Notes under the pieces: generated by a model
What the model saw: the letters and a program-made list of their open reading frames with translations, nothing else
Database searches by the model: none
Told to the model about the DNA's origin: nothing
Shown here: positions 7,673-46,200 of the stretch, piece after piece
Numbering within the stretch: position 1 is the stretch's first letter
Layout: the number at the start of each line of letters is the position of its first letter
Virus record (IMG/VR): IMGVR_UViG_3300027659_000037
Coordinates: 1-60,661 of that record
Reading direction: 5' to 3' (one strand)
DNA: 60,661 bases
DNA from: a virus
Taxonomy: Duplodnaviria; Caudoviricetes
Made by a program: the position numbers and the translations under genes

Positions 7673-7681
7673 GTACGCTCC

Positions 7682-11576: not shown

Positions 11577-11584
11577 GTGAGTCC

Positions 11585-14189: not shown

Positions 14190-14306
14190 ACTGGGGCGGA
14201 TTTTTGAAAAATATGTAATCGTTTGTGTGGTTCAGAGGGGGGTGGCATGGGGGGAGAGGCTCATTGTGGTTTAGGGGGGTAGGGGTCGGTGTGGGCTTAT
14301 TTAGCG

Positions 14307-14356
14307 TTCCGTCTCCTGCCGGAATGATTGACTATTCACTCTACATCATCTATTAT
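14307..14356 (+). promoter_or_regulatory. Palindromic site plus sigma70-type promoter
   Basis: TTCCGTC-tcct-GCCGGAA at 14307-14324; TTGACT (14328), 17-bp spacer, TATTAT (14351). Confidence 0.75.
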
Positions 14357-14417
14357 TCTTTTATCGGAAGCAATTCGGCAACCGATAACCCTGTAAACCC
14401 TTTATAAGGAAATGAAA

Positions 14418-15086
14418 ATGGCTAAAGCAAAAACCCTGACTGCCCAAGCAGTCGCAGTGCAGTTCACTTCAGTGACAGACATCGCAGTGCAACATGGTCA
14501 AGCAGAGAATAAGATCTCTGCCTGTGCTGAGTACGCACTGGACATAATCAAAGGCTTTCCAGTACTGAAAGAAGTCTCAGAAGAAAACGTCAAAGCCCTG
14601 CGAGACGGTTATTCTTTGCATCATCGCAGTGTCTATAAGCCTAAGACATATGCAGTCATCAGTGGACAATACTTTGAGGCAACCCCAGATCATCTGGCAA
14701 ACGACAAAGTCGAAAAGATCAACGCAACGATCGACTGGGCAATGGTCTGGACACCCAATGAGATGGCGACTGAATTCAAAGATCGTCCAGAATTAAAAAA
14801 GATCGTCGAAAAAGTACGCAAAGCACATTTAACTTATGTGTCTGACACACTGGGTAAATTGGTACGCAAAGCAGAGGCGATTTTAAAAGATCGTGCGGGT
14901 ATCAAAGCAGAACGTAGAATAGTTCTGTTTGTGAATACAGTCGGAGACTTCTTTGCAGCACAGGAAAAGTCAGTGAAAGTTAAGCAGACTCGAAGTGGCG
15001 ATGCTACTGCTAACCCTGAGAAGTTTAAGGAGGCAGTCAAAGCCTTTTGGTTAGCATATGGTCAGAGACCTACTCAGTCTAAGTAA
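14418..15086 (+). CDS. Early hypothetical protein, paralog A
   Basis: AAGGA RBS; colinear with 15319-15972 over its whole length. Confidence 0.85.
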   Translation: MAKAKTLTAQAVAVQFTSVTDIAVQHGQAENKISACAEYALDIIKGFPVLKEVSEENVKALRDGYSLHHRSVYKPKTYAVISGQYFEATPDHLANDKVEKINATIDWAMVWTPNEMATEFKDRPELKKIVEKVRKAHLTYVSDTLGKLVRKAEAILKDRAGIKAERRIVLFVNTVGDFFAAQEKSVKVKQTRSGDATANPEKFKEAVKAFWLAYGQRPTQSK

Positions 15087-15095
15087 TTAGACTCT

Positions 15096-15135
15096 AAGCC
15101 CAGACCGGATTAATTTCCGGTCTGGGCTTTTTTTT
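15096..15135 (+). terminator. Rho-independent terminator
   Basis: 14-bp stem AAGCCCAGACCGGA/TCCGGTCTGGGCTT plus T run. Confidence 0.9.
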
Positions 15136-15145
15136 GTCCCGCTAT

Positions 15146-15172
15146 TTGAGACCAGTTATGTAAGGGCGCGCG
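15146..15172 (+). repeat. 27-bp box TTGAGACCAGTTATGTAAGGGCGCGCG, copy 1
   Basis: Identical to 16025-16051. Confidence 0.9.
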
Positions 15173-15215
15173 TGAGATCGAGCGAGGATGTCGAGCGCGA
15201 AACTATTAAATAGTG

Positions 15216-15265
15216 TTCCGTCACCTGACGGATTGATTGACATTCTATATGGTCTCAGCTATTAT
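15216..15265 (+). promoter_or_regulatory. Palindromic site plus sigma70-type promoter
   Basis: TTCCGTC-acct-GACGGAT at 15216-15233; TTGACA (15237), 17-bp spacer, TATTAT (15260). Confidence 0.8.
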
Positions 15266-15318
15266 TCTTTTACCTGATGCAAATCAGGTATTTCAATCAA
15301 CCCTTAAAAGGAAATGTA

Positions 15319-15972
15319 ATGTCAAATCGTAAAACCCCGATAGCTCAAGCTATCAACCCCGTGGCTTTTGTCTCAATTACTGACATTGGTTTACAGCATG
15401 GCAAGGCTGAGAATCGTATTGATTCATGCGCTGAATCAGCCCTTGACCATATCGTAGGTTTCCCCATTCTCAAGGATGTCTCAACTGAGGATATCAAATC
15501 CTTGCGTGACGGCTATTCATTGGCTCACAAGGAAATCTACAAGGCTGTCACCTATGCTGTTATCAATGGACAGTATTTTCCCGCCACGCCAGAACACCTT
15601 GAAAACAAGAAGGTTGAGAAAATCGAAGCCACGATAGATTACGTCATGAGTTTCACGGCTAATCAAATGGGTACGGATTTCAAGGACAACCCCAACCTCA
15701 AGGCTGTCGTTGAGAAGGTTCGCAAGGCTCACCTCACTTATATATCTGATAAGTTAGGCAAGTTGGTGGACAAGGCTGAGAAGATTCTTAGAATACGCTC
15801 AGGTATCAAGGTTGAGCGCCAAGTGGTGTTATTCATTGATACCATGAAGAAGATATTTGAAGCACAAGGGAAATCTGTCAAGGTGAAACAATCTCAGCGT
15901 GGTGACGCCACGGCTAATCCTGAGAAATACAAAAAGGCTGTTGAAGCTTTTTGGCAAGCGTACAAAGCGTAA
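15319..15972 (+). CDS. Early hypothetical protein, paralog B
   Basis: AAGGA RBS before ATG 15319; paralog of 14418-15086. Confidence 0.85.
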   Translation: MSNRKTPIAQAINPVAFVSITDIGLQHGKAENRIDSCAESALDHIVGFPILKDVSTEDIKSLRDGYSLAHKEIYKAVTYAVINGQYFPATPEHLENKKVEKIEATIDYVMSFTANQMGTDFKDNPNLKAVVEKVRKAHLTYISDKLGKLVDKAEKILRIRSGIKVERQVVLFIDTMKKIFEAQGKSVKVKQSQRGDATANPEKYKKAVEAFWQAYKA

Positions 15973-15983
15973 CGCTTGAGCCG

Positions 15984-16015
15984 AACCCCGAGCCGCAAGG
16001 TTCGGGGTTTTTTTT
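15984..16015 (+). terminator. Rho-independent terminator
   Basis: AACCCCGAGCC-GCAA-GGTTCGGGGTT plus T run. Confidence 0.9.
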
Positions 16016-16024
16016 CGCCCTTAA

Positions 16025-16051
16025 TTGAGACCAGTTATGTAAGGGCGCGCG
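16025..16051 (+). repeat. 27-bp box, copy 2
   Basis: Identical to 15146-15172. Confidence 0.9.
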
Positions 16052-16090
16052 CGTGATTAGCGTGTGCGTGGTTTATGAGCTTAATTAGCG

Positions 16091-16108
16091 TTCCGTCTGG
16101 TGACGGAA
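16091..16108. promoter_or_regulatory. Palindromic site TTCCGTC-N4-GACGGAA
   Basis: Perfect match to the recurrent motif. Confidence 0.75.
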
Positions 16109-16120
16109 TGGGATCATCGC

Positions 16121-16214
16121 CTACCGTTCTCAGAACTCACACTACCAAAAACACGTCTACATCATCTACCGTTCTCAGAACTGATGATCTACATCGCCTA
16201 CCGTTCTCAGAACT
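16121..16214. repeat. Three copies of CTACCGTTCTCAGAACT
   Basis: 16121-16137, 16166-16182, 16198-16214; internal palindrome GTTCT-C-AGAAC. Confidence 0.9.
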
Positions 16215-16259
16215 GATAGATTTGAACGCACAAAGCATACTAACTTTACATGTTCCAAA

Positions 16260-16625
16260 AAAAGAGTAGAACAAATGGGGTCGAGTAGAACAGAAAAACC
16301 CTCGTAAGTCCTTGTCAGCATTGAAGAAAAAGTTTTTGTTCTAATGTTCTACGATTTTGAGCATAGGGGTCAGGATTTTGCAGTTTTTCTCAATCGCAAG
16401 ACTTACCTGCTGAGTGCAAAGTTGCAGTCGAAAAAATCGAAATAAAACCGTATCCCCCCTAAAAACCGTAGAACATTAGAACAAGTTTCTTTTCTTTCTT
16501 TCTTTTTTATAAAATAATAATACTTCTCCTTACAAAAAACACAGAAAACCTACTTCAAGTAATACTCGTTTTTGTTCTAACTTTACATAGAAAAATAGAA
16601 CAAGTGGTAGAACATTAGAACAAAC
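16260..16625. other. Putative replication origin (TAGAACA iterons around an AT-rich core)
   Basis: TAGAACATTAGAACAA at 16469 and 16608, inverted at 16336; single copies at 16267, 16286, 16572 (inverted) and 16596; no ORFs; AT-rich stretch 16485-16570. Confidence 0.5.
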
Positions 16626-16652
16626 GCCTTGAATAACTATCTTACCGTATCA

Positions 16653-16758
16653 CTTGTGTTAAATGTATAGTTGTGGTATACTTATATCTGAGTCGAGGAT
16701 GAAACGCTTGCAGGTCGCAAGCACCACGGCTTGTTTAGTGTTCCGTCATCAGACGGAA
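16653..16758 (+). promoter_or_regulatory. Sigma70-type promoter (copy 1) plus downstream palindromic site
   Basis: TTGTGT, 17-bp spacer, TATACT (16677) with extended -10 TG; palindrome at 16741-16758. Confidence 0.75.
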
Positions 16759-16789
16759 CGGATCAATGTCAGACCTTTAGGAGAGAGTC

Positions 16790-17083
16790 ATGAAAATGTT
16801 TTTTGTTGCCCCGATGCTTCCTGCATCCATTGCACGCCCCATCATTCGTTTGCACAAGCCCCGCGTTGCTTACAACCATGCGCAGACAGATCTCACCGAG
16901 ACCATGCGCCGTGATGCGTTGCGCACCGATACGTACTTCAATCAGAATTTAGAGTTCTTGGACAGAGACTACGATTTCGACGAGTTCCAAGACATTGACA
17001 ACGAGCATGAGGGCTTGACCATAACCGAGCCAATGTCCGAGGTCGAGTTGTTCCAGTTCTGCACTGGCTACGACACCATCTAA
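16790..17083 (+). CDS. Hypothetical protein with acidic C-terminus
   Basis: AGGAG RBS. Confidence 0.7.
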   Translation: MKMFFVAPMLPASIARPIIRLHKPRVAYNHAQTDLTETMRRDALRTDTYFNQNLEFLDRDYDFDEFQDIDNEHEGLTITEPMSEVELFQFCTGYDTI

Positions 17084-17094
17084 TTTATTCAGCG

Positions 17095-17112
17095 TTCCGT
17101 CTACGGACGGAA
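17095..17112. promoter_or_regulatory. Palindromic site TTCCGTC-N4-GACGGAA
   Basis: Perfect match, intergenic. Confidence 0.75.
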
Positions 17113-17138
17113 TCAATTCCCTCATCAAGGAGAATCAC

Positions 17139-17504
17139 ATGGGACGTTTCAAAGATATTGCCATCGGCATGGTGGAAGACCACGAACAAGTACAGGGTGA
17201 CTTGTTCATCGACGATGAACTGCGCACGTTGATGCAGAACTTCAAGCCAACAGCAGAGGAACTTCAAGCTGAACTAGATGAACTGCAAGCTCATGCGATG
17301 AGCTTACCAAGTCTTTGTGTTCAGCCTGAGGTGAAAGTTTATTTGCTGATGAAGAACGGTTTCCCTCAGCGCTCATACACGGACAGGGCGTTGGCGTTCT
17401 ACGAGTGCTGGATTTGCACCGAGGGAGACATGCACGCCGAGACACCCGACGACTACTACGTTGTCGAGATCATGCACGACACATCCACTTACACAGGGGA
17501 ATGA
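17139..17504 (+). CDS. Hypothetical protein
   Basis: AAGGAG RBS. Confidence 0.7.
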   Translation: MGRFKDIAIGMVEDHEQVQGDLFIDDELRTLMQNFKPTAEELQAELDELQAHAMSLPSLCVQPEVKVYLLMKNGFPQRSYTDRALAFYECWICTEGDMHAETPDDYYVVEIMHDTSTYTGE

Positions 17505-17505
17505 C

Positions 17506-17718
17506 ATGAAAGTAAGACAGATACGCCGAAGGGCGAAGACCAAGTATGTAACGGAGGCGGGCTTTGCTTTCTTGCGTGGATGCTTTGCCAAGCGATGCCG
17601 TACCTATGAGGCGGGATGTCCCACTTGTGATGAGTGGCGCTTTCGTGACGAGCATGGGCGGTTCGTCTACAACTGGGATGAGTTGCGTAAGTACATGGAC
17701 ACAACGGAGGAAGTATGA
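17506..17718 (+). CDS. Hypothetical Cys-rich protein
   Basis: MKVRQIRRR...KRCRTYEAGCPTCDEW; GGGGA RBS. Confidence 0.6.
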   Translation: MKVRQIRRRAKTKYVTEAGFAFLRGCFAKRCRTYEAGCPTCDEWRFRDEHGRFVYNWDELRKYMDTTEEV

Positions 17719-17963
17719 ATGATTTCTTTTGGAACTACCGCATCGTCAACACAAAGACTGCTAACGGAGGGGAGGATTGGTACTGCATCCAAGAGGTGAT
17801 ATACAACGAGGACGGCAAACCCGAGAGTTATGGCGAGCCTTGCCTTGGGTCAGAGGATATGGAATCCTTTGGCGATGTGTGGCACATGATGCAGGAAGCG
17901 ATGACCTTGCCCCCATTGCAGGAAGAAGATTTTGTCCAACCAACACAGGAGTATTTCGCATGA
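17715..17963 (+). CDS. Hypothetical protein
   Basis: WNYRIV...IQEVIYNEDGKP; GGAGG RBS. Confidence 0.7.
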   Translation: MNDFFWNYRIVNTKTANGGEDWYCIQEVIYNEDGKPESYGEPCLGSEDMESFGDVWHMMQEAMTLPPLQEEDFVQPTQEYFA

Positions 17964-18118
17964 ATCCAATCTATTACATATGCACTGCCGTCATATCTTG
18001 CGGGTTCATCGTGGTGGGGTGGGGTGGCGAGGGCTATCTGCACTACCTGTGCCTGATCTTGGGCGGCGTGGGGTTCGGTGCAACTGTCACCGATGCGTTG
18101 AATTACACAGGAGAGTGA
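17960..18118 (+). CDS. Small two-TM membrane protein
   Basis: AGGAG RBS; two hydrophobic segments. Confidence 0.55.
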   Translation: MNPIYYICTAVISCGFIVVGWGGEGYLHYLCLILGGVGFGATVTDALNYTGE

Positions 18119-18121
18119 GTA

Positions 18122-18301
18122 ATGAATATCACAGTCGAGATCAGGGAGGTCTATGGTCAGTCCAAGATCTACCCAGTGTGTGACAAGGCGCAGACGTTTG
18201 CGCATATCGCAGGGACAACCACGCTACTGCCCCGAGACATCCAACGCATACAGATGTTGGGGTTCGAGGTCTTGGTAAAACAGAAGGAGTTGAAGTTATG
18301 A
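18122..18301 (+). CDS. Hypothetical protein (59 aa, below ORF-track cutoff)
   Basis: MNITVEIREVYGQSKIYPVCDKAQTFAHIAGTTTL...; AGGAG upstream. Confidence 0.65.
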   Translation: MNITVEIREVYGQSKIYPVCDKAQTFAHIAGTTTLLPRDIQRIQMLGFEVLVKQKELKL

Positions 18302-18516
18302 GCAATGACATTCACGAACCAGAGTGCAGGCAATGCGGTGATGAGTATTCCGTCAACAGGTGGAAGCTTGGTTACAAGTTCTGCTTACCATGCGGCGAGC
18401 GTATCGCACAGAAGATCGTGCGCACTGTCGTGCCCATGCACAAGTCCAACTACGTGATGCTGACTGACATGGCTGACTTGAAAGGCATCAACAACAAGGG
18501 AGGGTTTCACAGATGA
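18298..18516 (+). CDS. C4 zinc-finger protein
   Basis: CRQCG-x13-CLPCG (DksA/TraR-like spacing). Confidence 0.65.
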   Translation: MSNDIHEPECRQCGDEYSVNRWKLGYKFCLPCGERIAQKIVRTVVPMHKSNYVMLTDMADLKGINNKGGFHR

Positions 18517-18764
18517 ACCACACACTAACAGATGAGTATCTATCCATTGCAATGACGGAATCAACGATGCGGAGGGCACACATGATTAGCACAGCGAATG
18601 GGGAAACCCTTGAGTCAGAAGCAGAGGAGGCGTTCTATGCCTACCTGACCGAGTTGCAACAGCAAGTAAAGATGCTTGTCGCTGAGGACAGGAAAATCAG
18701 TGCGACCTTGCGTGATGTGTTTCTTGCGGGATACCGCGCGTCAGAAGAAAGGAGATTCAGATGA
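18513..18764 (+). CDS. Hypothetical protein
   Basis: Coupled ORF with GGAGG RBS. Confidence 0.6.
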   Translation: MNHTLTDEYLSIAMTESTMRRAHMISTANGETLESEAEEAFYAYLTELQQQVKMLVAEDRKISATLRDVFLAGYRASEERRFR

Positions 18765-19087
18765 TGTACGGAGATGACATGAGCCACATGGTGTCGGTGT
18801 TCGTGCCGGTGGGCAGGGACAAGCCATGCCTACCATACGATGAATTCATAACTGAGGGAGGGTTTCATCCAAGCTCGTTCGCTGAAAGTTCTGAGTATGG
18901 TCGCCACTTCTATACCAAGTACGAGTTCCCGAACGGCAAGAAGGTGAGCGTGATCTGTGGGGCAATGTTCTATTCACGGACAGATGCCCCATACGAGGTG
19001 ATGTTTGAGGACGAGGACGAACCGTATGGGTATCAGACCGACGAGGAGTTGATGATTCTTTTAGCCAAAGCAATAGGAGATGCGTAA
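18761..19087 (+). CDS. Hypothetical protein
   Basis: YEFPNGKKVSVICG..YS..PYEV motif; AGGAG RBS. Confidence 0.65.
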   Translation: MMYGDDMSHMVSVFVPVGRDKPCLPYDEFITEGGFHPSSFAESSEYGRHFYTKYEFPNGKKVSVICGAMFYSRTDAPYEVMFEDEDEPYGYQTDEELMILLAKAIGDA

Positions 19088-19506
19088 TGGGATATAGATC
19101 AGAGGTGGCATACACCATCAGATTCACAAGCGACGACGAGCGAGCCAAGCAATCGTTTTATACATTCATAGCCGAAGCTAAGGCTAAGGCTGCCACAGCC
19201 CCATGTTTCACTGAGGAACAAAAGAACTGGAATGGAGGTAATGGGTTCATCGTGGACGAGGGACGATTCCGTATTAATTTCTCTGCTGACGATGTGAAGT
19301 GGTATCCCGACTACGACGATGTGAAGTGCCATGAAGCGTTGATAGAGCTTGCCGACGAGTGGGCGAACGACGAGGACAACCATTCCGAGATCGCCTATGT
19401 ATTCGTGCGTATCGGTGAGGAGAACGACGACATTGAGGAGAGGTTAGGCGGAGACTACGACTTTGAATGGGTGCAGGTCAATCGCTCGATCAGTCGAGAC
19501 TGGTAA
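19087..19506 (+). CDS. Hypothetical protein
   Basis: MGYRSEV...DVKWY...FVRIGEENDDIEE motif. Confidence 0.7.
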   Translation: MGYRSEVAYTIRFTSDDERAKQSFYTFIAEAKAKAATAPCFTEEQKNWNGGNGFIVDEGRFRINFSADDVKWYPDYDDVKCHEALIELADEWANDEDNHSEIAYVFVRIGEENDDIEERLGGDYDFEWVQVNRSISRDW

Positions 19507-19546
19507 ATAACTGGCATCTTCTTACGCAACTACTTTGCGTGAGGGT

Positions 19547-19639
19547 CTTGTGTTATATGTATAGTTGTGGTATACTTATAACTGAGTCGGGAATGAAAAT
19601 CATCGACGACTCGAAACAGCGTTCCGTCACCAGACGGAA
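19547..19639 (+). promoter_or_regulatory. Sigma70-type promoter (copy 2) plus downstream palindromic site
   Basis: About 52 bp nearly identical to 16653-16704; palindrome at 19622-19639. Confidence 0.75.
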
Positions 19640-19666
19640 TGAATCATCAATCGAAAAGGAGTTCTC

Positions 19667-20596
19667 ATGAACACAGAGTTATCAAAGCCCAAGCATCTCA
19701 TCAGCTTGGCATCAAGTGCTGTCCTCGTCAGCGTGGATGCGAATGTATGGTCAGCGACCAAGCAAGACCGTGGCATCAGCAATGATGTTGCTGACTCAAA
19801 GCACGCCGATCGCAAGGCGGGCAAGTACGTTAAGAATCTGTTGGCAGATCATCCAAAGCACAAGGCGTTGGTCAACTATCGCCAGACGATTTACAACTGG
19901 GTCAAGCGTCGCACCTATCGTTGGAACAACTCACAGGACTTGTTGCCGAGCATCGACGTGCCTAAGTTCAAGCAGGAGTTCGGCGAGCATAAAGCGTCGT
20001 TCGAGAAACTTCTTGCAGATTTCATTCTGTCCTATGACGGAATCGTAAGTGACATGGCGTTCAAGGCAGGGGGCATGGGCGATATGTTCGATCGGTTGGA
20101 CTATCCTCCCAAGGAAGCATTGGCGGCTAAGTTCGGCGTTGAGCTTTATGTGTCCGAGGTTCCGATGAGTGACTTCCGTTGTGGCATTGCGAATGACATC
20201 GCTGATGATTTGTTTAGTACATACAGCAAGCAAGCCGAGGACATCGTGTCATCCATCGTCAACGAGCAGAAGACAAGGTTCATCGAGGTGATGCAGTCGA
20301 TCAGTCATTGTTGTGGCGTGGACGAGATCGGAGTGGACGACAACACAGGCGAGACCAAGACTCGCAAGCGCAAGATCTACGACACCACAATCCAGAAAGC
20401 GTTGGAGATGTGCGAGACCTTTAAGGGTTTCAACCTAAGCGACGATCCCGAGCTGGAGGTAGCCCGAGCATCGCTTGAGAGAGCATTGGCAGACGTAGAT
20501 GCCAAGAGTATCCGCGAGTCGGACGCAGTGCGTTCAAGTGTGAAGGAGGATGTAGACAGCATCCTCAGTAAGTTCAGTTCTTTTCAGTGTGTTTAA
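19667..20596 (+). CDS. DUF3150-like protein of the AAA+/vWA module
   Basis: LASSAVLVSVDANVWSATKQD...AGKYVKNLL...DYPPKE; sits upstream of the AAA+ ATPase. Confidence 0.55.
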   Translation: MNTELSKPKHLISLASSAVLVSVDANVWSATKQDRGISNDVADSKHADRKAGKYVKNLLADHPKHKALVNYRQTIYNWVKRRTYRWNNSQDLLPSIDVPKFKQEFGEHKASFEKLLADFILSYDGIVSDMAFKAGGMGDMFDRLDYPPKEALAAKFGVELYVSEVPMSDFRCGIANDIADDLFSTYSKQAEDIVSSIVNEQKTRFIEVMQSISHCCGVDEIGVDDNTGETKTRKRKIYDTTIQKALEMCETFKGFNLSDDPELEVARASLERALADVDAKSIRESDAVRSSVKEDVDSILSKFSSFQCV

Positions 20597-20622
20597 TTCA
20601 GTAATCAATCAGGAGTTCCAAA

Positions 20623-21741
20623 ATGAGCAAAGTTTCTTTCGTCAATACCGTGACCATCAACGAACTACGGAAAATAATTCCGCTAATAGCTTCAGATCTG
20701 ACAGTGGTCGTACAGTCAGAACCTGGGTGTGGCAAGACCTCGCTGTTATCCATGATGGCGGTTGACAACGGTGACAAGTGGCGCAGTCCCAAGGATGGCA
20801 CAAACATCGAGGGTGACAAGTACGACTACATCTACGTTGACTGTCCGGTCAAGGACATGAGCGACATAGGTATGACTATCCCCAACCATGCGACCAAGCA
20901 GTTGGAGTACTACGTCGCTGAGTTGTTCAATATGAAAAGCAACAAGCCCAAGGTCATCTTGCTCGACGAGTTGATGAAGTCTCCCAAGCTGATGCAGATC
21001 ATCTATACCCGCCTGATGTTGGAGAGAATGTTAGGTGATGATCCGTTGCCAGACGGAAGCCAAATCATTGCGACGTCGAACAATGCAAGCGATGGCGTGG
21101 GCGATGCGATGTTGGCTCATGCGGCAAACCGTGTGTGTATTGTGCGCATGGCTAAGCCCACAGCTGATGAGTGGTTGCAGTGGGCAACAGCCAATGGAAT
21201 CTCTCGTGTTGTTCGTGCGTTCGTGGCGATGTTCCCGAGGGTGATGGCATCGTATACCGAGGGCGATATGCAGAAAGATAACCCTTACATCTTCAAGCCA
21301 AGCTCAGGTGCGTTGTCGTTCTGTTCCCCTCGTTCGTTGGCGAAGTGCGATGTGATCGTGAAGCATCGTGATGCGATAGGCGAGAACGCAACTATGGTTG
21401 CATTGGCAGGAACGATTGGTGCGTCAGCGGCAGGGGACATGGCGGCATTCATGTCGTTGGAGAAATCATTGACAGATGTCAAGGACATCGTGAAGAACCC
21501 GTTGGGTGTGACCATGCCGAGAGACATATCAGCCCAGTTGATGATTATGTTTCAAGCAGTAGATACATTGGCGACGCAGGATGAGTTGACAGCGTTCATG
21601 GAGTTCGTCGGTCGTATCGACTCAAGCGAAGTGCAAGCAGTGTTCTTCACCATGATGATGCGTAGTCCCAAAGCAGTGCGTCTTGCTCGCAACAATGCAA
21701 AGATCGCTGAGTGGGCTAAGAACAACCACGAATTGTTTTGA
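20623..21741 (+). CDS. MoxR-like AAA+ ATPase
   Basis: Walker A SEPGCGKT, Walker B ILLDE, ATSN sensor, ANR, SPRS. Confidence 0.85.
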   Translation: MSKVSFVNTVTINELRKIIPLIASDLTVVVQSEPGCGKTSLLSMMAVDNGDKWRSPKDGTNIEGDKYDYIYVDCPVKDMSDIGMTIPNHATKQLEYYVAELFNMKSNKPKVILLDELMKSPKLMQIIYTRLMLERMLGDDPLPDGSQIIATSNNASDGVGDAMLAHAANRVCIVRMAKPTADEWLQWATANGISRVVRAFVAMFPRVMASYTEGDMQKDNPYIFKPSSGALSFCSPRSLAKCDVIVKHRDAIGENATMVALAGTIGASAAGDMAAFMSLEKSLTDVKDIVKNPLGVTMPRDISAQLMIMFQAVDTLATQDELTAFMEFVGRIDSSEVQAVFFTMMMRSPKAVRLARNNAKIAEWAKNNHELF

Positions 21742-21753
21742 TAGGGGGGCAAT

Positions 21754-21930
21754 ATGAAACGATGGAAAGGAACACTTGTCGTGTCATACACACAAGATTT
21801 GGAAGTCGAAGCCGAGACGCAAGCCGAGGCTGAAGAATTGATGCGAGAAGCATTTGACCCAACACGATGCCATAACACCGCCGAGTGCCAAGCATACGAT
21901 GTTGAAGAAATAACAATGAGGGTTGAATGA
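21754..21930 (+). CDS. Hypothetical protein (58 aa)
   Basis: MKRWKGTLVVSYTQDLEVEAETQAEAEE..., read by hand. Confidence 0.55.
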   Translation: MKRWKGTLVVSYTQDLEVEAETQAEAEELMREAFDPTRCHNTAECQAYDVEEITMRVE

Positions 21931-22124
21931 TGATAACTTTTACTGAGTTGGAGTTGGTGTTGCTGATTGCGTTTGGTGTGATGACGTTCTATTTTTTCAG
22001 ACTCAAGGCTGAGTTGTATATGCACAGGCGTGTAGTAGCAGAGATGTTCATGCGTATTGCCAAGGGCAATGTGAAGGTTACCCAGACTGATGATGGCTTT
22101 GACTTTGAGGACATCAAGTCATGA
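21927..22124 (+). CDS. Small membrane-anchored protein
   Basis: N-terminal TM segment. Confidence 0.6.
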   Translation: MMITFTELELVLLIAFGVMTFYFFRLKAELYMHRRVVAEMFMRIAKGNVKVTQTDDGFDFEDIKS

Positions 22125-22207
22125 GTGAAACAAAGTGGTTGACCGTCGTCTATGTGTTGGCGATGGTTGTTCTTGTGTTAGATATATTTTATTGGAGAGC
22201 GATATGA
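22121..22207 (+). CDS. 28-aa single-TM peptide
   Basis: MSETKWLTVVYVLAMVVLVLDIFYWRAI; ATGA overlaps at both ends. Confidence 0.5.
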   Translation: MSETKWLTVVYVLAMVVLVLDIFYWRAI

Positions 22208-23484
22208 GCAAGCAAGAAACGCGTGTTAAGAAGGCGCACATTGCGCTGATGAAACACCCAGAGACAGCGTTGTACTCAGGCGTGATGTTGATGGGGTACA
22301 GCAAGGTCGTGGATGAAGGATGTCCTACGGCATACACCGATGGTATCAACAAGGTATACGGTCGCAAGTTCTTGGAGGGTGTCGATACCGAGCCGAAGGT
22401 GCGTGGCTTGATACTGCATGAGAACCTGCATGTGGCGTTGAAGCAATTACCAAGAGGTAAGGATATGTTTGACGAGAACCAAAAGATGGCGAACATTGCC
22501 GCTGACTTTGTGGTGAACGGCATCATTGAGAACATCAAAGGCACAGTCAATGGGTCGAGTGAGCGTATCGTGGACTTGCCTGATGGTGGTGTGTTTGACC
22601 CCATGTTCGACAACTGGTCAATGCGTGAGGTATACAACTACCTCAAGAAGAACTGCAAAGGCGGTGGCAAGGGCAACGGTCAAGGTGGCAAGGGAGGTGG
22701 TCAAGGTAACGTTCCGTCAGGGGGCGGAAACGAAGATGGCGATGGAGACACTATCACCATCAATGGCAAGACCTATGATCTTTCTAACTCAGACCAACAT
22801 GATCTCGGCAACCTGAAAGATCTTACGCATGAGCAGGTCAAAGAGATCAACGATTCAATTGATCGTGCGTTGCGTGAGGGCGGGATGTTAGCAGGTCGTA
22901 TGGGTGCGAAAGTACCCCGAGCTATCTCTGACTTACTCGAACCCAAGATTGATTGGCGTGATGCGTTGAGAGACTTTGTAGCGAGTGCCATCAAGGGCAA
23001 GGATGAGTTCACATGGCGCAAGCTGAACAAGCGTCACATGGCTAATGACATCTACTTACCAAGCATGGAGAACGAGACGATCGGCGAGGTGGTCGTCGCC
23101 ATTGACACATCAGGGTCGATCGGCAGTGCGCAGATTACCGAGTTTGCGACAGAACTGGTCTCTATTTGCGATCTTTGTTCACCTGACAAAGTGCGTGTTC
23201 TGTGGTGGGACACCGATGTGCATGGTGAGCAAGTGTTCGAGGGTGACTACAAAGGCATTGCTCAGATGCTTAAGCCAATGGGTGGGGGTGGTACTCATGT
23301 GTCATGCGTCAACGATTACATCAACGAGCAAAAGATCAATGCCGAGTGCGTGATCGTGTTCACTGATGGCTACGTCGAGAATGACATCACGTGGAACATT
23401 CATAGTCCAACCCTGTGGATGGTGACACAGTGCAAATCGTTCGAGCCGCCTGTTGGCAAGTTGGTGAAGTTCGGTGAAGACTGA
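22204..23484 (+). CDS. vWA-domain metallopeptidase-like protein (DUF2201-like)
   Basis: PTAYTDG, HENLH (HExxH), NIAADFVVN, MIDAS DTSGS, GGGGT, FTDGY. Confidence 0.85.
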   Translation: MSKQETRVKKAHIALMKHPETALYSGVMLMGYSKVVDEGCPTAYTDGINKVYGRKFLEGVDTEPKVRGLILHENLHVALKQLPRGKDMFDENQKMANIAADFVVNGIIENIKGTVNGSSERIVDLPDGGVFDPMFDNWSMREVYNYLKKNCKGGGKGNGQGGKGGGQGNVPSGGGNEDGDGDTITINGKTYDLSNSDQHDLGNLKDLTHEQVKEINDSIDRALREGGMLAGRMGAKVPRAISDLLEPKIDWRDALRDFVASAIKGKDEFTWRKLNKRHMANDIYLPSMENETIGEVVVAIDTSGSIGSAQITEFATELVSICDLCSPDKVRVLWWDTDVHGEQVFEGDYKGIAQMLKPMGGGGTHVSCVNDYINEQKINAECVIVFTDGYVENDITWNIHSPTLWMVTQCKSFEPPVGKLVKFGED

Positions 23485-23821
23485 AGACCTATTCAAAGAT
23501 TACTCTTGGAAAAGGGTAACTTACTACAACGGTGTAGAAGACGTGACGTTGGTGTTCACCCATAAGCTTGAATCGCTTATCTTTCAAGCAAACAGAGCAC
23601 CGAAGTTGAATAGCGCCTATGGTAGAGGAGAGGAGGTGATTGTGCGTCATCGTATGTCCAAGGAGATAGCAGAGGAACTCTTGATTGACATGGGGGATTC
23701 TGCTTTCGTCTACTGTTTGGAGAGGATAGAGAACAACGCACAGAATTCACGACTGTGGCGGGATGTGTTGTTATGGCTAGGTGAAGAATCAACTAAAGGA
23801 GAAAGCAATGAGAGGATTTGA
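23474..23821 (+). CDS. Hypothetical protein
   Basis: ORF filling the gap with overlaps. Confidence 0.5.
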   Translation: MKTEDLFKDYSWKRVTYYNGVEDVTLVFTHKLESLIFQANRAPKLNSAYGRGEEVIVRHRMSKEIAEELLIDMGDSAFVYCLERIENNAQNSRLWRDVLLWLGEESTKGESNERI

Positions 23822-24788
23822 TTACAAGCGTTTAGAGCAGATCACGAAGATAGAGAAGCCGTTTCGTGGTACGACCAATCGGTTTCCAATCGGGAGTCGT
23901 AGGCGTAATCTTCAGAATTTCTACGTCAGGGAAGAGAATGGCGTAAAAGTATTTGACATAACGTGTGGGACTCGTTGGAACACAGTTGAGCTTACTAAGG
24001 AAGAATACGATGCGGGAATCGCAAGGTGCGAGAAGAACCTACATGAGTACACATACGACGCGAGTGCGGGTACTAAGTACGTCAGGTATGAGCATCCTAT
24101 CCATGTCTTAGGTACTGTGTACCCCGAGTACTTTCAATTCACTGCCGAGGGCAACTACCCCTATGGGCAAGGCGAGAAGAAGTTCCTTAGCGATGCCACT
24201 AGCGGATGGTTTAAGAACGACTCACGCAGGGGTGGGATGGTGTGGTCGATTGGGCGCAGTGATGCTTGGCGCGTGATGCCGATCTTCAAGAACATGAGAG
24301 TAACAACCGATCAGGCTATGCGCTCGCTTGATGAGTATTCCGTCATCGGGCGGAAAGTCAATCGCAAAGTGGGTAAAGAGGTTCTTGCAGGATACGAACA
24401 CTTCTACAAGGTAAGCGAGACCATGTGCAAGGCGATGGACAGAGAAGCGTTCTTGCGTACAGCTAAGGAAGTTCTTGAAGAACATAGGGACGATACCGAC
24501 TTTGAAGTAGCTGACGAATTGCGAGATCAAGCACCACTTGATGCAATGATTCTTTATGCGTCAGCGTTGGGTGTCGGAAGGATTCAAGATCAGATCGTCC
24601 ACCCTAACTGGCATCGGTCTGAACCGCATGAAATCTTTGAGAATCTTAAGCGACACATGAACAACAGAATCTACAAAGAACATCCCGAAGTGTTCAAGCT
24701 TGTGCGGTATGGGACGGATGAGAAGTATCCGCCGAGCGTGTGGGGGTACGAAGTCGAGGTCAATGGCGAGATTGTTCAGCAGTATTAA
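23808..24788 (+). CDS. Hypothetical protein
   Basis: Long ORF; AAGGAG RBS before ATG 23808. Confidence 0.75.
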   Translation: MRGFDYKRLEQITKIEKPFRGTTNRFPIGSRRRNLQNFYVREENGVKVFDITCGTRWNTVELTKEEYDAGIARCEKNLHEYTYDASAGTKYVRYEHPIHVLGTVYPEYFQFTAEGNYPYGQGEKKFLSDATSGWFKNDSRRGGMVWSIGRSDAWRVMPIFKNMRVTTDQAMRSLDEYSVIGRKVNRKVGKEVLAGYEHFYKVSETMCKAMDREAFLRTAKEVLEEHRDDTDFEVADELRDQAPLDAMILYASALGVGRIQDQIVHPNWHRSEPHEIFENLKRHMNNRIYKEHPEVFKLVRYGTDEKYPPSVWGYEVEVNGEIVQQY

Positions 24789-40112: not shown

Positions 40113-40296
40113 ACCAGATTGGGTATTTCCGTTTGAAGTTATGGAGGTAGGGGACAGTTTCTTTGTCCCCACCCTTCGCTTTGCTGAGATGATCTACTCG
40201 ATTGACAGCGGTGCAAAACGTGCCGGTATTAGGGTCAAGTCCTACATCGTCGTCAAAGAAGATCACATCGGAGTGCGCACGTGGCGCATCCGTTAA
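40102..40296 (+). CDS. Small putative DNA-binding protein
   Basis: FPFEVMEVGDSFFVP...GVRTWRI motif. Confidence 0.7.
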   Translation: MVSEPDWVFPFEVMEVGDSFFVPTLRFAEMIYSIDSGAKRAGIRVKSYIVVKEDHIGVRTWRIR

Positions 40297-43200
40297 GGCT
40301 TGACTCCATACGCTTTAAACATTGCGATCATTTCATGTTTAATCATGTTCTCTTGCAGGATAGTCACTTTCAACATTTTATCTCGTATCTTAGGGCTTAG
40401 ACTTCCATCTAAACGGATCTGATTTGCCTCAGCCCTGAGTCTATTAAGTTCAACAACCTGTTGTTTGTAGATTTCTACAATATCCCTGTGCATGGGATTT
40501 TGCATGTCGTACTTTATTCCTGCAACTGGCGCGGCGGTATCAAATGTATTTAATTTTTGTTGGATTTCTTTTATTTGTTTTTCAACTGAACTAAATTCTC
40601 GAGAGTCCACATTGGACTTTGACCCAAAGAAAGATCCAATCAAAGGTAAATCAGTTTTAGGGTTGAACTCTTTTGCACCTTTGCTTAAATTAAACATACC
40701 GTAGATTAACTCGCCAACCTTGCCAAGACCGTCAAGATAGCTGTTTGTAAAAAAGTACAGCGTGTTAGGGCTAACATCAACTCCACCCACGCCAAGTCCC
40801 GGCACGTCTGATTTAAACAATTCTTTGGCAACGGTCTTGTATATCTCAGGAATCTTGTCCCCGCCTGTGTACGCATCGCCCATGCGTCGCGCTGTTGCGC
40901 TGTTGATATCTTGCCCAATGCCGTTTTTGTTCATTAGAAATTCGGTCAGGGGTCGAATCACAGTAGGCATCAATGAGTCAACGGCAAAAGCCAAAGGTGC
41001 TTCAGATGCGGGAATCTTAGAAATAGGAAGCGGCACAAACGAGTCTGCCATGATGGACATCACAATACTACTCATGCCATCTTTAAGGGAAGTCTGCCCA
41101 CGAGTCATGCCAGCAACTTGTGCACCCATCGCTGCAAATGCTCCCAAACCAAATCCCCACGGCACTTGAAAGATTACACCTCTGCCCAAGCCTAGACTCT
41201 CTGAAACACTGTCAGGAATATGAAACCGAGCGTTGCGAGTCCATTGCTGCATGTTGTCAGTCTTGACTGTGTTGCGCCCAAACTCATCGTCAGGAGCCAT
41301 CATCTCTGCCATCATGTACAAAAGGTACCCCATGCCAGACAAGGCAGTAATCATGATCCGTGCATTGCGTTGCTTCTCCGCGTAGGCGGTACGGAACTTA
41401 GCCACAGCCTCAGGGTCACTTTGAATGTTGGCAGGCAAACCAGCCACCACGTCATCAATGTTACGGAACGCAGGCGCAACGGCTTCAATGGAGCGTTTGG
41501 CACTGATTGCTGAGGGGCGGATAAACATGTACAACGCACCCATGCCACGGCTGTACGTACCCTTCTGCTCAAAGTTGGTCATCTCTTTTGCATAGGTCGC
41601 CGCTTGAACTGCCGCCGCTTTTTCAGCCGCAGACATCTGACCGTTGGGGCCGGGCGTTGTTGAGAGGCCGTTCGCTATTTGTTCTTTTAGGGCACGTTCT
41701 TTCTCTTGAGCGTACACCGCTGCGCGGCTGGTAAATTCAAACATGTTGTTCCATGTATCTACCAGCAGGTTGAACTGATCTAGTTTGGTGATCGTACGTG
41801 ATTTGCCAGTAGATTCAGCCAGCTTTTCCATATTGGTTTTCAAAGAGAAGCTTTGTATGTAAGTAGTCTTTGCACCGTTTTCAAGGTACTCAACCATATT
41901 CTTTACGTACGCATCCTCTTTCACCATCTTAGCAAGCAGTGCTTTGCTTTCGGGATCGCTTCGATCATGTAAGGAAGCAACTTTCCACGCCTTGGCTATA
42001 CCGTTATTGGCAACAATGTTTGCCGCCATTGATGTAGCGTACTGAAGTGCGGCAGCAGGGCCACGATCTGCACCAATGTTGAATGAATTAAACAACGCGT
42101 CGCGTATAAAGTTCATCGGCGCAAAGTTGTAGTTGTACCGTGTATGCAGCGAGCCAAAGAAGCCAGTTACTCGATTGGCAGTGTCAAGCAATGTATTGGT
42201 ATCTTGGTAGGTATACCGCAAAGAGTTCAGCAGCTTCTGATTGGTGATCTTGAGAATATCTAGTGAGCCATCTTTGTTGTAGTGAAAGATGTAATCCTCA
42301 CCCTTGTACTTCTTCATGTCGATGTTGTTGCGTTCCAAAAACTCAAAGTGCTTGATGTCCCCCGGAATAATGCCAGCTTCCATTGCATTCTTGATCGACT
42401 GTGTATAGTGTTTACGCCCCGCACGCCCCGCCGCGCGGATAGCATCGGACAAGCTCTGCAAAATTGGGTTATCGGAGACACTGAACCGACCGTCCATAGC
42501 AGCTTGGTATTCCTGCAACTCACGTCCGTTGCGGCGGCTATCAAAATCAAAACTGTCGTCAGCTTGTTTCTTGCCACGATCTTTGCCTTTGAACGGCATG
42601 TAGTTTTTAAACCCGTACAACCCAACAAGGTTTGATACAGGTGTAGACCAATAGTTGCCTTCTCTATTCAGTTCTGTCGTAGTCTTATGCAACTCACGCA
42701 TGGTCGTATAAATTGCTTGAATAGCGTTGTACTCGGCAGGGTTGTTCTGCTGCATATCAGCCAACTGCTGCTCCCGCAAGGCAACTTCAGACTGCTCAAG
42801 TCCCAACACATTGAATGCGCCGTCGTTGATATCTATGGGCATACCTTGCTTAGCTTTGCCGGGAGGCGCGGGTCTATTAAGACGTTCACGCACCTTGTCA
42901 GAAACGCGAGGGCCGTCTCCGTACGCATCAGCGTAGGTATTGGCAAGGTTGGTCAACTCAGTTCGCAAAGCTTTAAGTTGGACTTGAGTCAGTTCTGTTT
43001 TGTGGATCAAACCCGGCTTGTTGGTACGCTCGTCCCCAACAATCTGCACGCGACGTTCAGCAGGGCTGATCTGCACATTATTTTGAGTAAGCAGTTTTTG
43101 TTGACTCAAGGGCACAGTCAGTATAAATTTAACGAGCCGACGCTCAGGCTCGTGCATAGCCTCAGCAATTCTGTGCAGGCGGTTTAGCGCGGGTTTCAGG

Positions 43201-46200
43201 TCTTGCCCAATCAGCGCTGCATATTCTGTTACTTGGCTTTGCAGTTTGTTTTCTGTATCTTGCACACGGTTGATGTACTCGTTCTCACCAAGCGCTGCGC
43301 TGGTGACCGCCCACTCATAGAAGTTGGTGAATTTACCGTTTAAGTCCCGTGAAATCTTACCTGCAAGGTTGTATGTATCGAACAAGTATTTTGCTTCAGT
43401 GCGTCTGTCCACAAGCCATGTGGCAATCCGTCTCCAGCCTTCAGCTGTTGTAAACAACTTCTTTACAAAGTTTTTGCCATCCGGCGCGTCATTGCGATCG
43501 GGGTTGTAAGCAGAGTTGTCACCGTCAATACCATTAGCTGGCCCACTAGCTGGCAACGGTTTCATACTGATCGTACCTTTTTCAGGTACAGCCAGTATGT
43601 CTTCAAATGCAGCTTCAATTTCCAGCCGGTAATTGATGGGAGCTTCCATATCAAGCTTGCCACGCTTGAACAATTCTTTTGTGACGCCAAGCAGTTCAGC
43701 CACCTTCAGCTTAAACTCAGACCACATGGACTTCTTCTCAGGCAAAATTGTTTCTGTCTCTCCTACACCTTGCCGCAACTTAGCCAACTCCAATTGGAAA
43801 GACTTGTTGGTCATAGAGTAGCTGACAAACTCATACAAGTTTTTGTATGCCTCAGGAAACTTCTTGGCAAAAAACTGTCTACTGTCGTCCATTATGCTTT
43901 GCAGTTGTTCCGCTGCTTCAAGCTGCGCCATTGTTAACCCGACACCGTTCTTAGTTAAGAATATATTTAATACCTTAATAGTGGCGGCGTGTACAAGCTC
44001 GTGCATCAACACAGCTTCAGTCGCGCCAAATGGGGTTACAAAGATCGTGTCCGAAGCTGGGTCATAGATTGCAACGTCCTTGCCGGGCAGCTTGTCAACC
44101 ATTTGAATCTGGGTGTTCAGCTTCATGCTGAAAATTGCTTGGGCAATGTTTCGGAAGAACTTATTGTTTGCAGAAGTGCGCAGGAACTGCAACACGCCTT
44201 GGATGTTGTTACCCTTTATATGGGCAAGTACAGCATCAGGCACAAGCCCCTGAGTAGAAGTTCGCTGGCTGGCTTGATTGAGCTTGTCGTACTTCTCTTT
44301 GTTCTGTTTATGTTCTTGCTCAATCTTGTTCTGCACTTCAGCAATACGCAACGCAACGTTACGTTTCTGGTCATTGGTCATCCGTCTTTCTTTTTGAAGC
44401 AGATGAACTCCAAGATTCGCAAAACCTACGTCCTGCTGTAGCCCAGCATTACTAATAATTTGTTGCAGGTATACCTGCTTGTCACCGTCATTAAGTTCGC
44501 CCCATGCAGGAAACTCCACCCCAAACAACTTGCTGCTGACGGCGCGGTTCTGCTCATAGGCGTTTACAAAGCGTTGCTGCTCTGTAGTGAGATTTAATTT
44601 ATCAGCGCTTTTCTTTTTGCGATACGCATCAAGTGCCGCCGCCGCATTGTTGTGTTCTTCAATCGTGTTTTGCCTGATGTTGTCAAAGTAGACATCTTTC
44701 TCGTCAGGCCTTAAATCATTCCACGCAGGGATGAGAACACCTTCCTCACGTTTGGCATCACGGGTTAGGTCATACTCCTCACGCATCTCAGCCGTGATTT
44801 CATATCTACCTTCCTTAGACTCTTCACCTTCTTTTAGAACTTCATATCTTGGTATGGTTCTTGGTTTGCCTTCTTCGTCTACCTTAGACTCAGCCAAATT
44901 CTTCTGGTAATCTTCGTCTGCTGTCTGTTCATACTTGTCAGCCAACTCCATTGCAGCTTGGAGGTTTACCTCGCTACTTTGTTCAGTAGCTACATAACCC
45001 GGAGTTGTGTCAATGCGTTCAGGCTTGCTTGTTGTAACTAATGGAGCGGGCTGTATTGCCTTTCCTGCACCAGTGTCTGTAGCAGGTGTTCCAGTATCAA
45101 CCACTCTGTCTGATTGAGTTGTAGTAGTTCCTCCGGGGGTGACGACAGCACCGGGTTTGCCAGCCACAGTAGCGCCTGCTCCACCTGCACTTGCGATAGG
45201 TTCATTAACATTTTGACCCTTTTCTTTATCTATTTCTTTCCCTGTATGCAAAAACCATAGGGCTTGTTTTACTCCGCCTATTTCTTTTTCTAATTCTTCA
45301 ATTGCTGCTACTGCGTCCCTAACTTTTTGTGAACTGTTACGGCGCAACGTTGGCGCAAAGCCTAAAGCCTCGCGTTTCTTTTCAAGTTCTTCTAATTGAG
45401 CAGTTCTTTCTTGGATGAGCCGATCAACAGTTTCTTCTCTACTCTCAGTAGGAGGCGCAGTCTCATCCGGTTTGACCTCTGTCGTTGCAGGAGTAGTCTC
45501 AATCGGTTTGGTTGCCTGCCCAATAGGCACAGCGGGGCTGAGCATTGCCTCAGTTTCTGCATCAACCTTGGGCGCAGTTCCCGTAGTTTCAGTTTTAGTT
45601 TGGGTCTGCTGAATCTGCTGCTGTTCTTTAAGCGCTTCTGCTTTTTCTTTTTCAAACCTAGCGGTGTAGCCTTCACGCCCACCGATCGCTGCGCCCATAC
45701 CAGCACCAGCTAAACCTTCTAAAGTGCCTTGACTGACAACACCACGAAATGTGGGTACATCAAAGCCTTCACGTTGCAACGCCAAATTTTGTGCGAGTTG
45801 TTCTTGCCCGCCCTGTGGAAACTCGGTTGCAAGCTCTTTACCTGCTGTAATTGCGCCTTGTTTAATAGCCCCGCGTTCAGCAGCTTTTTTGGTCTCTTGT
45901 TCCGCTACCGCTTTAACCGCAGCTCTGGTGGCTTCCTTGCCTGCTGTCTGTGTGGCGGCGGTAGTGGCAGCTTGTTCTGCTGTGGTTCGCCCAATAATAT
46001 CTTTTGCCAACTGCCGAGCAAGGATAGGCTCTGCACCTGTTCTGGCCCCAACTGCGCCAATACCTGCGCCAAGTAGGATCTGATCTAAGTTCTTACCGTC
46101 GTATTCTTGCGCCTTAACCGCAACAGCTTCAATCTGCTCAGGCGTCATCTTGGTTTTTTCAGTCAATACCTGTTTGGTAGCGTCATATATTGCACCCTTA

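Follow-up and report, generated by a model that had tools for sequence, protein, structure and literature searches.

Phage-specific palindromic words dispersed along the early arm of an uncultured aquatic phage and its relatives

The C1 operators of phage P1 and the conserved inverted repeats of the phiC31 repressor occur in many copies spread over kilobases, and in each case they are read by one phage protein. In the lambdoid phages, Cro and CI act with the operators OR and OL, and a dimer made from the first gene of an early promoter turns that promoter down. The lambda nut site combines a boxA with a boxB, and the loop is the recognised part of its hairpin. The hairpin promoters of the phage N4 virion RNA polymerase (vRNAP), as described in the accessible part of PMC4496689, have a conserved 3-nt loop with specific bases (a purine at -11, G at -10) and a G at -8. 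Here we analyse an 18-bp palindrome, TTCCGTC-N4-GACGGAA, which is repeated along the early region of the viral record IMGVR_UViG_3300027659_000037. The window is this whole IMG/VR record (60,661 bases, with a completeness estimate of 95%). It has a minus-strand head and terminase arm (1-14248), a plus-strand early and replication arm (14412-40112), and a third arm, again on the minus strand, with the large internal virion proteins, tail and lysis genes. Related phages have different palindromes of the same form, often at the same places. We favour, tentatively and as a quite possible reading, that these sites are operators of a phage-encoded dimeric DNA-binding protein throttling early transcription, with the product of the first early gene (14418) and of its paralogue (15319) as the leading candidate.

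The palindrome in the window and its counterparts in relatives

An exact search finds four perfect copies (16091, 16741, 17095 and 19622), with none expected from 100 dinucleotide-preserving shuffles. With up to two mismatches there are 11 copies, every one within 14307-24355, and the shuffles average 0.12, with no more than 2 in any of them. Raising the limit to three mismatches adds only two matches (27108 and 36564), which is the chance level (1.94), and neither minus-strand arm has a copy at this limit. The half-site alone is not enriched: nine of the ten occurrences of TTCCGTC belong to full sites. The copies are spaced 354-1671 bp from one another. Six are intergenic (14307, 15216, 16091, 16741, 17095 and 19622), all preceded by AG[CT]G, and five are within open reading frames (ORFs), at 18348, 20025, 21041, 22712 and 24338. 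There is a copy next to each of the four early promoters of host type and one at either end of a non-coding region that looks like an origin, and the sites at 16741, 17095 and 19622 end 27-32 nt 5' of start codons. The 25 terminator-like matches of the window include no copy of the 11; the true terminators are at 15096 and 15983. These coordinates and mismatch counts reproduce exactly those of an initial annotation made by a model from the sequence alone. Its further descriptions are confirmed as well, namely the AG[CT]G before the six intergenic copies, the two copies that abut -35 boxes, the two just downstream of promoters, the five in coding sequence, and a virion arm free of good copies. 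It had also asked whether the motif might be spread genome-wide at chance frequency, to which the 11 copies in 10 kb, against 0.12 in shuffles, give a negative answer.

Relatives were collected as 80 loci found by a search with the early ATPase (66-97% protein identity) and one close relative found through protein 14418, and the survey of words covers 82 sources (81 loci and the window). With a filter of at least three sites and a score of at least 5, 61 of the 82 sources have their own recurrent 7-N4-7 word, in 3-12 copies each; examples are TTCCACG, TCCCACG, ACCCAGC and ATCTGTC. The 21 others are excluded from later counts. Five of them also pass the filter but have unrelated top words, and 16 have too few sites (below three) or score low, in many cases because the locus is short. 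Grouped by five-base core, the words are TCCAC (25 sources), CCCAC (25), CCCAG (5), CTCAC (3), TCCGT (2) and TCTGT (1). The window's word is in none of the 80 ATPase-found loci, and the close relative found through 14418 has nine copies. In an exact-word scan of IMG/VR, G001, the genome with the same word, is among the matches listed the sole other related contig with several copies. The same scan gives an unrelated viral contig of 9,726 bases (L155-L158) with four perfect TTCCGTCAATTGACGGAA copies, which have a fixed spacer and lie within a longer repeat of its own. It has no proteins in common with the window, and the match of arm sequence is probably a coincidence.

The words form a graded series of close variants, and from one phage to another a change in one arm goes with a change in the other. 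Within a genome the switch of word extends to every site, which calls for selection by a reader acting in trans. In four complete relatives, own-type sites are confined to a single segment of 10-13 kb where the early arm begins. Several intergenic positions recur. An own-type site (up to two mismatches) lies upstream of 20 of 22 orthologues of gene 16790 (median 26 nt to the ORF start), 28 of 53 orthologues of gene 19667 (23 nt), 17 of 46 genes following the ATPase (21 nt) and 18 of 49 members of the first-gene family (91 nt). At 13 places in 11 sources the site abuts the -35 box of a sigma-70-type promoter of the first-gene family. All 13 of these sites are imperfect (1-2 mismatches), and as a rule the best copies are those on either side of the non-coding region. 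This bracketing is seen in 24 of 36 loci, with a site 101-179 nt after the last first-family gene and the next one 469-900 bp further on. The other 12 loci comprise five with spacings of 919-934 bp, one with 2622 bp, and six of ACCCACG type without the first bracketing site.

The five intragenic places differ in how well they are kept. Own-type sites with up to two mismatches are found at place 18348 in 8 of 41 orthologues, at 20025 in 11 of 54, at 21041 (the ATPase) in 12 of 51 and at 22712 (the DUF2201 linker) in 8 of 49. The phage's own core is the unique best match in 12 of 35 cases at 18348, 1 of 35 at 20025, 18 of 34 at 21041 and, at 22712, 28 of 32 distinct orthologous 18-mers. The copy at 24338 is probably not a selected site, and is fortuitous or recent, because 0 of 43 orthologues have an own-type site there and a relative with a different word keeps a window-like sequence. 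In the ATPase the peptide DPLP is kept. The codons there are GAT CCG TTG in the window; a relative that has the word ACCCAGC, and whose ATPase is 97% identical, uses GAC CCA CTG. Codons in conserved genes that spell each phage's own word require a sequence-specific reader acting in trans. This codon-level tuning is a clear case of regulatory sequence constraining coding sequence.

We describe the shape of the element from 274 unique sites in the 61 sources, and its pairing from 245 unique sites in the 53 sources with at least four sites. Both arms are equally informative and the central 4-6 bases have no information, as the initial annotation had supposed for arms and spacer from the window. 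Outside the arms there is a conserved left flank, T-A-A-t-T-A-G-y-g, and a weaker mirror image on the right, y-n-y-T-A-w-w-T-A. The TA steps of these flanks are symmetric, at distances of about 12.5/13.5 and 16.5/17.5 bp to the left and right of the centre. On account of the conserved flanks and the symmetric TA steps, the 18-mer is the core of an element of about 36 bp with nearly two-fold symmetry. Within the arms, positions 2-6 pair almost always, and complementarity is lost at position 1 in 82 and at position 7 in 79 of the 245 sites, which makes the conserved core a 5-N6-5 element of about one helical turn. This is the usual form of a dimer operator, with equally conserved half-sites about one helical turn apart and a free spacer. 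Between the window and its closest relative, site changes break pairing without compensation.

The candidate reader and the competing explanations

Two genomes separate the genes that follow the word from those that do not: G001, with the window's word, and G006, which has the word ACCCAGC and is otherwise near-identical to the window. Most genes are equally close to the window in both (83-98% identity). The first-gene protein, 14418, is 95% identical in G001 and 29% in G006, its paralogue 15319 is 94% and 30% identical, and a 2168-aa virion protein is 86% and 37% identical. These are the only large genes that collapse along with the word in G006; a small gene (17777-18118) is partly kept in G001 and absent from G006. 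Extending the comparison to nine genomes, in pairs with different words the first-gene proteins are never more than 50% identical. The giant virion protein reaches 75%, in a pair that involves the genome with the nearest word (ATCTGTC), and 15 other proteins tested reach 84-99%. By this comparison of sequences, the 14418/15319 product is the best candidate for a site-binding protein.

Members of the first-gene family have isoelectric points (pI) of 8.6-9.4 and a strongly positive C-terminal half. The protein is modelled with a predicted local distance difference test (pLDDT) value of 91 and is predicted to form a symmetric homodimer, with a score of 0.77 against 0.00 for the best control. Of 30 proteins solved as pairs, 20 attain the homodimer mark, and of 23 solved as single chains one does; at least 93% of the contacts are the same between runs, with a partner pLDDT of at least 83. 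Such a prediction is support for a dimer rather than proof of one, and it is silent on DNA. The family has 228 homologues, and the best 120 of the 228 are all unnamed and without Pfam domains.

The initial annotation had put forward both first-gene paralogues, two helix-turn-helix (HTH) proteins and the virion cargo proteins as possible binders. The paralogues keep their place, and among the cargo proteins one, the 2168-aa protein, follows the word. The HTH proteins 28721 and 36887 do not, and being 94% identical in the different-word G006 they are unlikely to set the specificity. Proteins 23781 and 24810 do not track the word either, and we reject the 59-aa protein 18122 as a specificity factor because it is near-identical in phages with three different words. 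Profile searches of 23781, 24810 and 19667 against the PDB find nothing. Identity of the giant protein to that of the window is 86% for the same-word genome, 74% for the genome whose word is nearest, and 36-45% for other genomes. It has an HExxH motif and, in nine of nine relatives, an LPD38 domain, and a profile search matches it to 9sfn_G (E 2e-6), a solved structure of an internal virion protein. A 986-aa protein has no match. We scanned 80 window proteins against PHROGs and 46 against Pfam. No RNA polymerase domain is found in the giant protein or elsewhere in these scans, which a very divergent enzyme could escape. A parS-like coating or protection of the DNA, one of the roles suggested in the initial annotation, finds no evidence here; there is no ParB-type domain in the same scans, which do not exclude one.

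The reading as operators on duplex DNA draws on the symmetry, the free spacer, the one-turn geometry, the lack of an RNA signal, the site upstream of the first promoter and the codon-level rewriting. Of the proposals in the initial annotation, that of sites for a dimeric protein is the best supported by these sequence features, to which the equal and co-changing arms can be added. The sites, their symmetry and positions, their co-variation between phages and the gene-level co-variation in one natural swap are observed; dimer binding to duplex DNA, the identity of the reader and a repressive effect are what we infer. A phage-encoded, two-fold symmetric (dimeric) protein would read the element of about 36 bp, and its sequence specificity would differ between closely related phages. 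That sites lie against -35 boxes, 3' of promoters and both in and between genes suggests promoter occlusion combined with roadblocks. The protein would occlude the -35 boxes of P1 and P2, the two strongest host-type early promoters, and would form roadblocks to elongation at the other sites, and loops may form from one site to another. Along the first 10 kb of the early arm, transcription by the host RNA polymerase would then be held down or shut off, and the region-wide early shut-off proposed earlier fits the promoter-adjacent positions. The imperfect first site could provide graded self-control of the first gene, or could leave the first gene as the last one silenced.

Several observations weigh against this proposal. 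The left flank (TAAnTAGYG), which is upstream along transcription, is clearly stronger than the right one, and in relatives the intergenic sites stand at a near-constant 21-27 nt from the next start codon. The two together suggest an element that is polar along transcription, which is unexpected for a plain symmetric operator. An operator centre near -47 is an unusual place for repression. The left-flank strength, the start-codon distance and the deep intragenic sites, such as the one in the DUF2201 linker, are not accounted for by operators. As for the candidate, the first-gene protein has no recognisable DNA-binding fold (Foldseek gives nothing at E <= 0.001, and the best VIA Z is 6.0), and it has no match in Pfam, PHROGs or a PDB profile search. 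The gene-level co-variation amounts to about one independent natural swap, and it is common to the giant ejection protein. On equal locus sets the word type changes 6 times on the first-gene tree, 7 times on the ATPase tree and 6-8 times on others, and because the counts are alike, tree congruence has no discriminating power. Two genomes with the same word have first-gene proteins that are only 39% identical. Looking by alignment column for residues associated with the word, we find none that is at least 95% accurate in any family.

A different explanation takes the palindrome to be an RNA hairpin in the early transcripts, read by a phage-specific RNA-binding protein or a host RNase, with a role in anti-termination (as in nut or put), in processing or 5'-end stabilisation, or in translation control of the next gene. 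We think this unlikely, although it would account for the polarity and for the distance to ribosome-binding sites. The two arms are able to pair in RNA, in stems predicted at -3.7 to -10.4 kcal/mol; every site is on the sense strand of one transcribed arm; the conserved A/U-rich left flank confers polarity; the distance of 21-27 nt to the start codon is shared by several different genes; and two sites are 40-70 nt downstream of promoters, as a nut site would be. In the window alone, six of the seven mismatches of the intragenic copies would by our reading be G-U pairs. The larger sample does not agree: across the 245 sites the non-Watson-Crick pairs are 53 G-T, 45 A-C and 196 others, without the sense-strand excess of G-U expected of an RNA hairpin. 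The closing and outer pairs are often open, leaving a 5-bp stem with a 6-nt loop, and the loop carries no information while the sequence of the stem is fixed, which is the opposite of how proteins recognise hairpins such as boxB. In addition, the flanking TA steps are mirror-symmetric yet unable to pair, and the conserved site 1 is upstream of the first promoter of the arm, with no evident plus-strand promoter before it. The element could also be read on the incoming DNA by a factor delivered with the virion, either an unrecognised injected RNA polymerase at an extruded, single-strand hairpin promoter like those of N4, or the 2168-aa protein pacing entry. This is distinctly unlikely in our view. 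The giant protein does track the word, including against an otherwise near-identical genome, the sites occur at only one end of the early arm, and an inverted repeat at a short distance from the ribosome-binding site would fit an N4-like start about 8 nt after the hairpin, as given in the accessible part of PMC4496689. That same part of the source has N4 needing a conserved 3-nt loop, and the spacer here is free. Moreover, no window protein scanned has an RNA polymerase domain, the giant protein resembles 9sfn_G and has LPD38 and HExxH, strong host-type promoters already serve the early genes, and the giant protein is only 36% identical between the same-word genomes G003 and G010.

If the sites belonged to a borrowed host transcription factor, the words would reflect the hosts. 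Many bacterial global regulators have sites of 5-N6-5 geometry, and the modules linked to the word (first early gene, ejection protein, tail fibres) are often host-dependent. We nevertheless consider a host factor very unlikely: the words differ in a graded series between phages whose other genes are 83-98% identical, which argues for co-evolution within the phage rather than a host jump. In a prokaryote scan with one genome per species there are at least 120 matches, scattered and single, which provide no host lead. Among the 80 matches listed, five single ones are in Legionella or Legionellaceae assemblies (L278, L280, L292, L309 and L323), and these may be one conserved locus. The least credible alternative, to which we give hardly any weight, is that the sites are intergenic cassettes spread by duplication or recombination with no reader of their own. 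T4-type phages do carry promoter/stem-loop cassettes, and here sites 1-3 belong to a tandemly duplicated unit of gene, terminator, 27-nt box and site, and the P3 and P4 blocks are duplicates. Passive spread would not lead codons within conserved genes to be altered so that they spell the phage's own word, nor would it make all sites of a genome change word in concert.

A more speculative extension of the operator proposal, and rather unlikely, joins the two groups of genes that follow the word. The sites, about ten in number, the immediate-early dimer and the giant ejected protein would be one co-evolving, lineage-specific address code by which incoming DNA is told apart as own or kin. If true, it would amount to a heteroimmunity-like exclusion between lytic phages, or to a stepwise entry of the genome gated by sequence, with the ejection protein reading, and each code switch would force the sites to be rewritten even inside conserved genes. 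Stepwise injection control, which the initial annotation had also raised, is unsupported; the co-variation of the ejection protein with the word keeps it in consideration.

Features of the locus and its setting

In Table 1 we collect the sites, promoters and genes of the region. P3 and P4 are missing from the promoter scan because their -35 boxes match at only three of six positions.

Table 1. Coordinates of the palindromic sites and of associated features in the window.
Feature	Position	Strand	Remarks
Site 1 (1 mismatch)	14307..14324	+	ends 3 nt before the P1 -35 hexamer; centre at about -47
P1, sigma-70-type, TTGACT-17-TATTAT, for gene 14418	14328..14356	+	promoter scan
First early gene, 222 aa	14418..15086	+	predicted novel fold, pI 9.4, predicted homodimer; candidate site-binder
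Intrinsic terminator 3' of first gene	15096..15129	+	scan
Site 2 (1 mismatch)	15216..15233	+	ends 3 nt before the P2 -35 hexamer
P2, sigma-70-type, TTGACA-17-TATTAT, for gene 15319	15237..15265	+	promoter scan
Paralogue of first early gene, 217 aa	15319..15972	+	65% identical to 14418
Intrinsic terminator 3' of paralogue	15983..16010	+	scan
Site 3 (perfect)	16091..16108	+	left border of the non-coding iteron region
Origin-like non-coding region, about 520 bp	16111..16630		three CTACCGTTCTCAGAACT repeats, iterons, A+T-rich stretch
P3, TTGTGT-17-TATACT	16654..16682	+	TG before the -10; by eye
Site 4 (perfect)	16741..16758	+	about +52 to +69 from P3; 32 nt before the ATG of gene 16790
Site 5 (perfect), intergenic	17095..17112	+	27 nt before the ATG of gene 17139
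Site 6 (2 mismatches), in 72-aa Cys-pair gene	18348..18365	+	orthologues often with their own word
P4, second copy of the P3 block	19548..19576	+	by eye
Site 7 (perfect)	19622..19639	+	about +40 to +57 from P4; 28 nt before the ATG of gene 19667
Site 8 (1 mismatch), in 309-aa gene	20025..20042	+	exact position specific to the window's lineage
Site 9 (2 mismatches), in AAA ATPase gene	21041..21058	+	synonymous codons fit each phage's word
Site 10 (1 mismatch), in DUF2201/VWA gene linker	22712..22729	+	position kept across all six word types
Site 11 (1 mismatch), in 335-aa gene	24338..24355	+	probably fortuitous or recent
2168-aa internal virion (ejection) protein, HExxH and LPD38	40293..46799	-	similarity tracks the word type

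In 14418-16108 the first gene stands twice in tandem, as a duplicated cassette that includes promoter, gene, strong terminator, a shared 27-nt box (TTGAGACCAGTTATGTAAGGGCGCGCG) and site. Many relatives also have two copies of the first gene, and the history of the paralogues is tangled. Sites 3 and 4, 650 bp apart, bracket the non-coding region, in which there are about ten iterons, TAGAACA or TGTTCTA, in both orientations. From its sequence the region looks like a replication origin or a binding array of a second protein. To the left, in the divergent region between the terminase and early arms, a 14-bp unit, GTACGTCTCGGCGG, is repeated 6.3 times (13933-14020), and could be a packaging or end-related signal. 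Direct repeats end the contigs of the complete relatives G002, G003, G005 and G010, measured as 123-127 bp in the first three. They probably reflect circular assembly and not physical ends, since their size is about the word length of the assembler.

Between P3 or P4 and the following site there is a conserved leader (16690-16740 and 19585-19621), also present in L010, L023, L009 and L013. It could encode a peptide of 8-9 codons (MK-x-I/F-N/D-D-...), which in several relatives ends in the TAA or TAG of the left flank. Its translation is doubtful, given the very short spacing to the Shine-Dalgarno-like GAGG. The 72-aa protein (18298-18516) has two Cys pairs with the phage's own word embedded between them. 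In Pfam it has only a weak match to YhfH, and by eye we take it to resemble the zinc ribbons of TraR/DksA type that bind RNA polymerase. At 20623-23484, an AAA ATPase (MoxR-like by PHROG) is followed by a DUF2201 metallopeptidase-like/VWA protein. This pair and the 309-aa protein 19667 are among the most conserved early genes. A 153-aa protein further along the arm (32504-32965) has the C-terminal domain of the RNA polymerase alpha subunit (PF03118, E 1e-10) and might redirect the host polymerase. Partial homologues (43-46% identity) are present in G001, G002, G006 and G007, and there are none in G003, G005, G008 and G010.

By terminase, the nearest named phages are HTVC027P and 023Pt_psg01 (both 48.6% identity), HTVC023P (48.5%) and DSL-LC04 (52%), the last of which we dropped from the comparison because its gene order differs. 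In the named-phage collection there is no match to the region by megablast or to protein 14418 by tblastn. The phage looks virulent, as neither an integrase nor a known repressor family is found in the PHROGs and Pfam scans. It belongs to a large and uncultured group of aquatic phages, distant from the abundant pelagiphages of HTVC023P type (about 49% terminase identity).

Comparison with known systems

N4 has a similar setting, with short inverted repeats in a podovirus-like early region; the accessible part of PMC4496689 also provides the parallel for a giant virion protein that co-varies here. The 7-nt arms with a 5-bp conserved core fall within the stem length of N4 (5-7 bp). The conserved 3-nt loop given for N4 in that part of the source has no equivalent, as the centre is 4 nt long, effectively 6, and carries no information in the 274 sites. 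Nor does the window have a polymerase domain that we can find, and it has host-type promoters and, across phages, 7-12 sites, some of them intragenic. The likeness to lambda nut is in the order of the parts, where a conserved box comes first and then a phage-specific repeat resembling a hairpin, 3' of early promoters; two of the 11 sites (16741 and 19622) have this placement. Unlike nut, the loop is free and the stem fixed, there is no G-U bias, the sites are many, and one conserved site comes before the first promoter. CRP-type 5-N6-5 sites also have two 5-bp half-sites one helical turn apart with flexible flanks; this likeness is of geometry only, and our scans of the window find no CRP-family protein.

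For the phiC31 repressor we looked at the protein as well as the sites. None of 48 first-gene family members matches the repressor-c domain (PF25746) in Pfam at E <= 5, and a link to it through an Atlas neighbour has a score of 0.80, which is the chance level. A literature search on the phiC31 conserved inverted repeats and on dispersed intragenic early operators found nothing usable, and the accessible part of the transcriptome paper on HTVC027P is without promoter data.

What the window has in common with the P1 C1 and phiC31 systems is one short operator, here a proposed one, in many copies that extend over kilobases, close to early or lytic promoters as well as in the gaps between genes. 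It differs from them in being an apparently virulent phage with sites in conserved genes, in the switching of the word between near-identical phages, and in a candidate protein of no known family. Lambdoid immunity offers the parallel of a candidate dimer from the first gene of an early promoter, with operator and protein specificities that diversify together. There the swap is of a compact module of operators and gene, and here about ten sites over 10 kb of otherwise conserved genes must be changed one by one. The early programme of these phages appears to be run by a code of regulator and sites, and this code has changed time and again among genomes that are near-identical. Natural swaps, in which the same genes carry different words, could identify a family of DNA-binding proteins with a new fold, and could reveal how a dispersed regulon changes its specificity without breaking. 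What is new here relative to the operators of P1, phiC31 and the lambdoid phages is the combination of a virulent-looking phage, sites scattered in conserved genes, and a candidate protein outside the known families.

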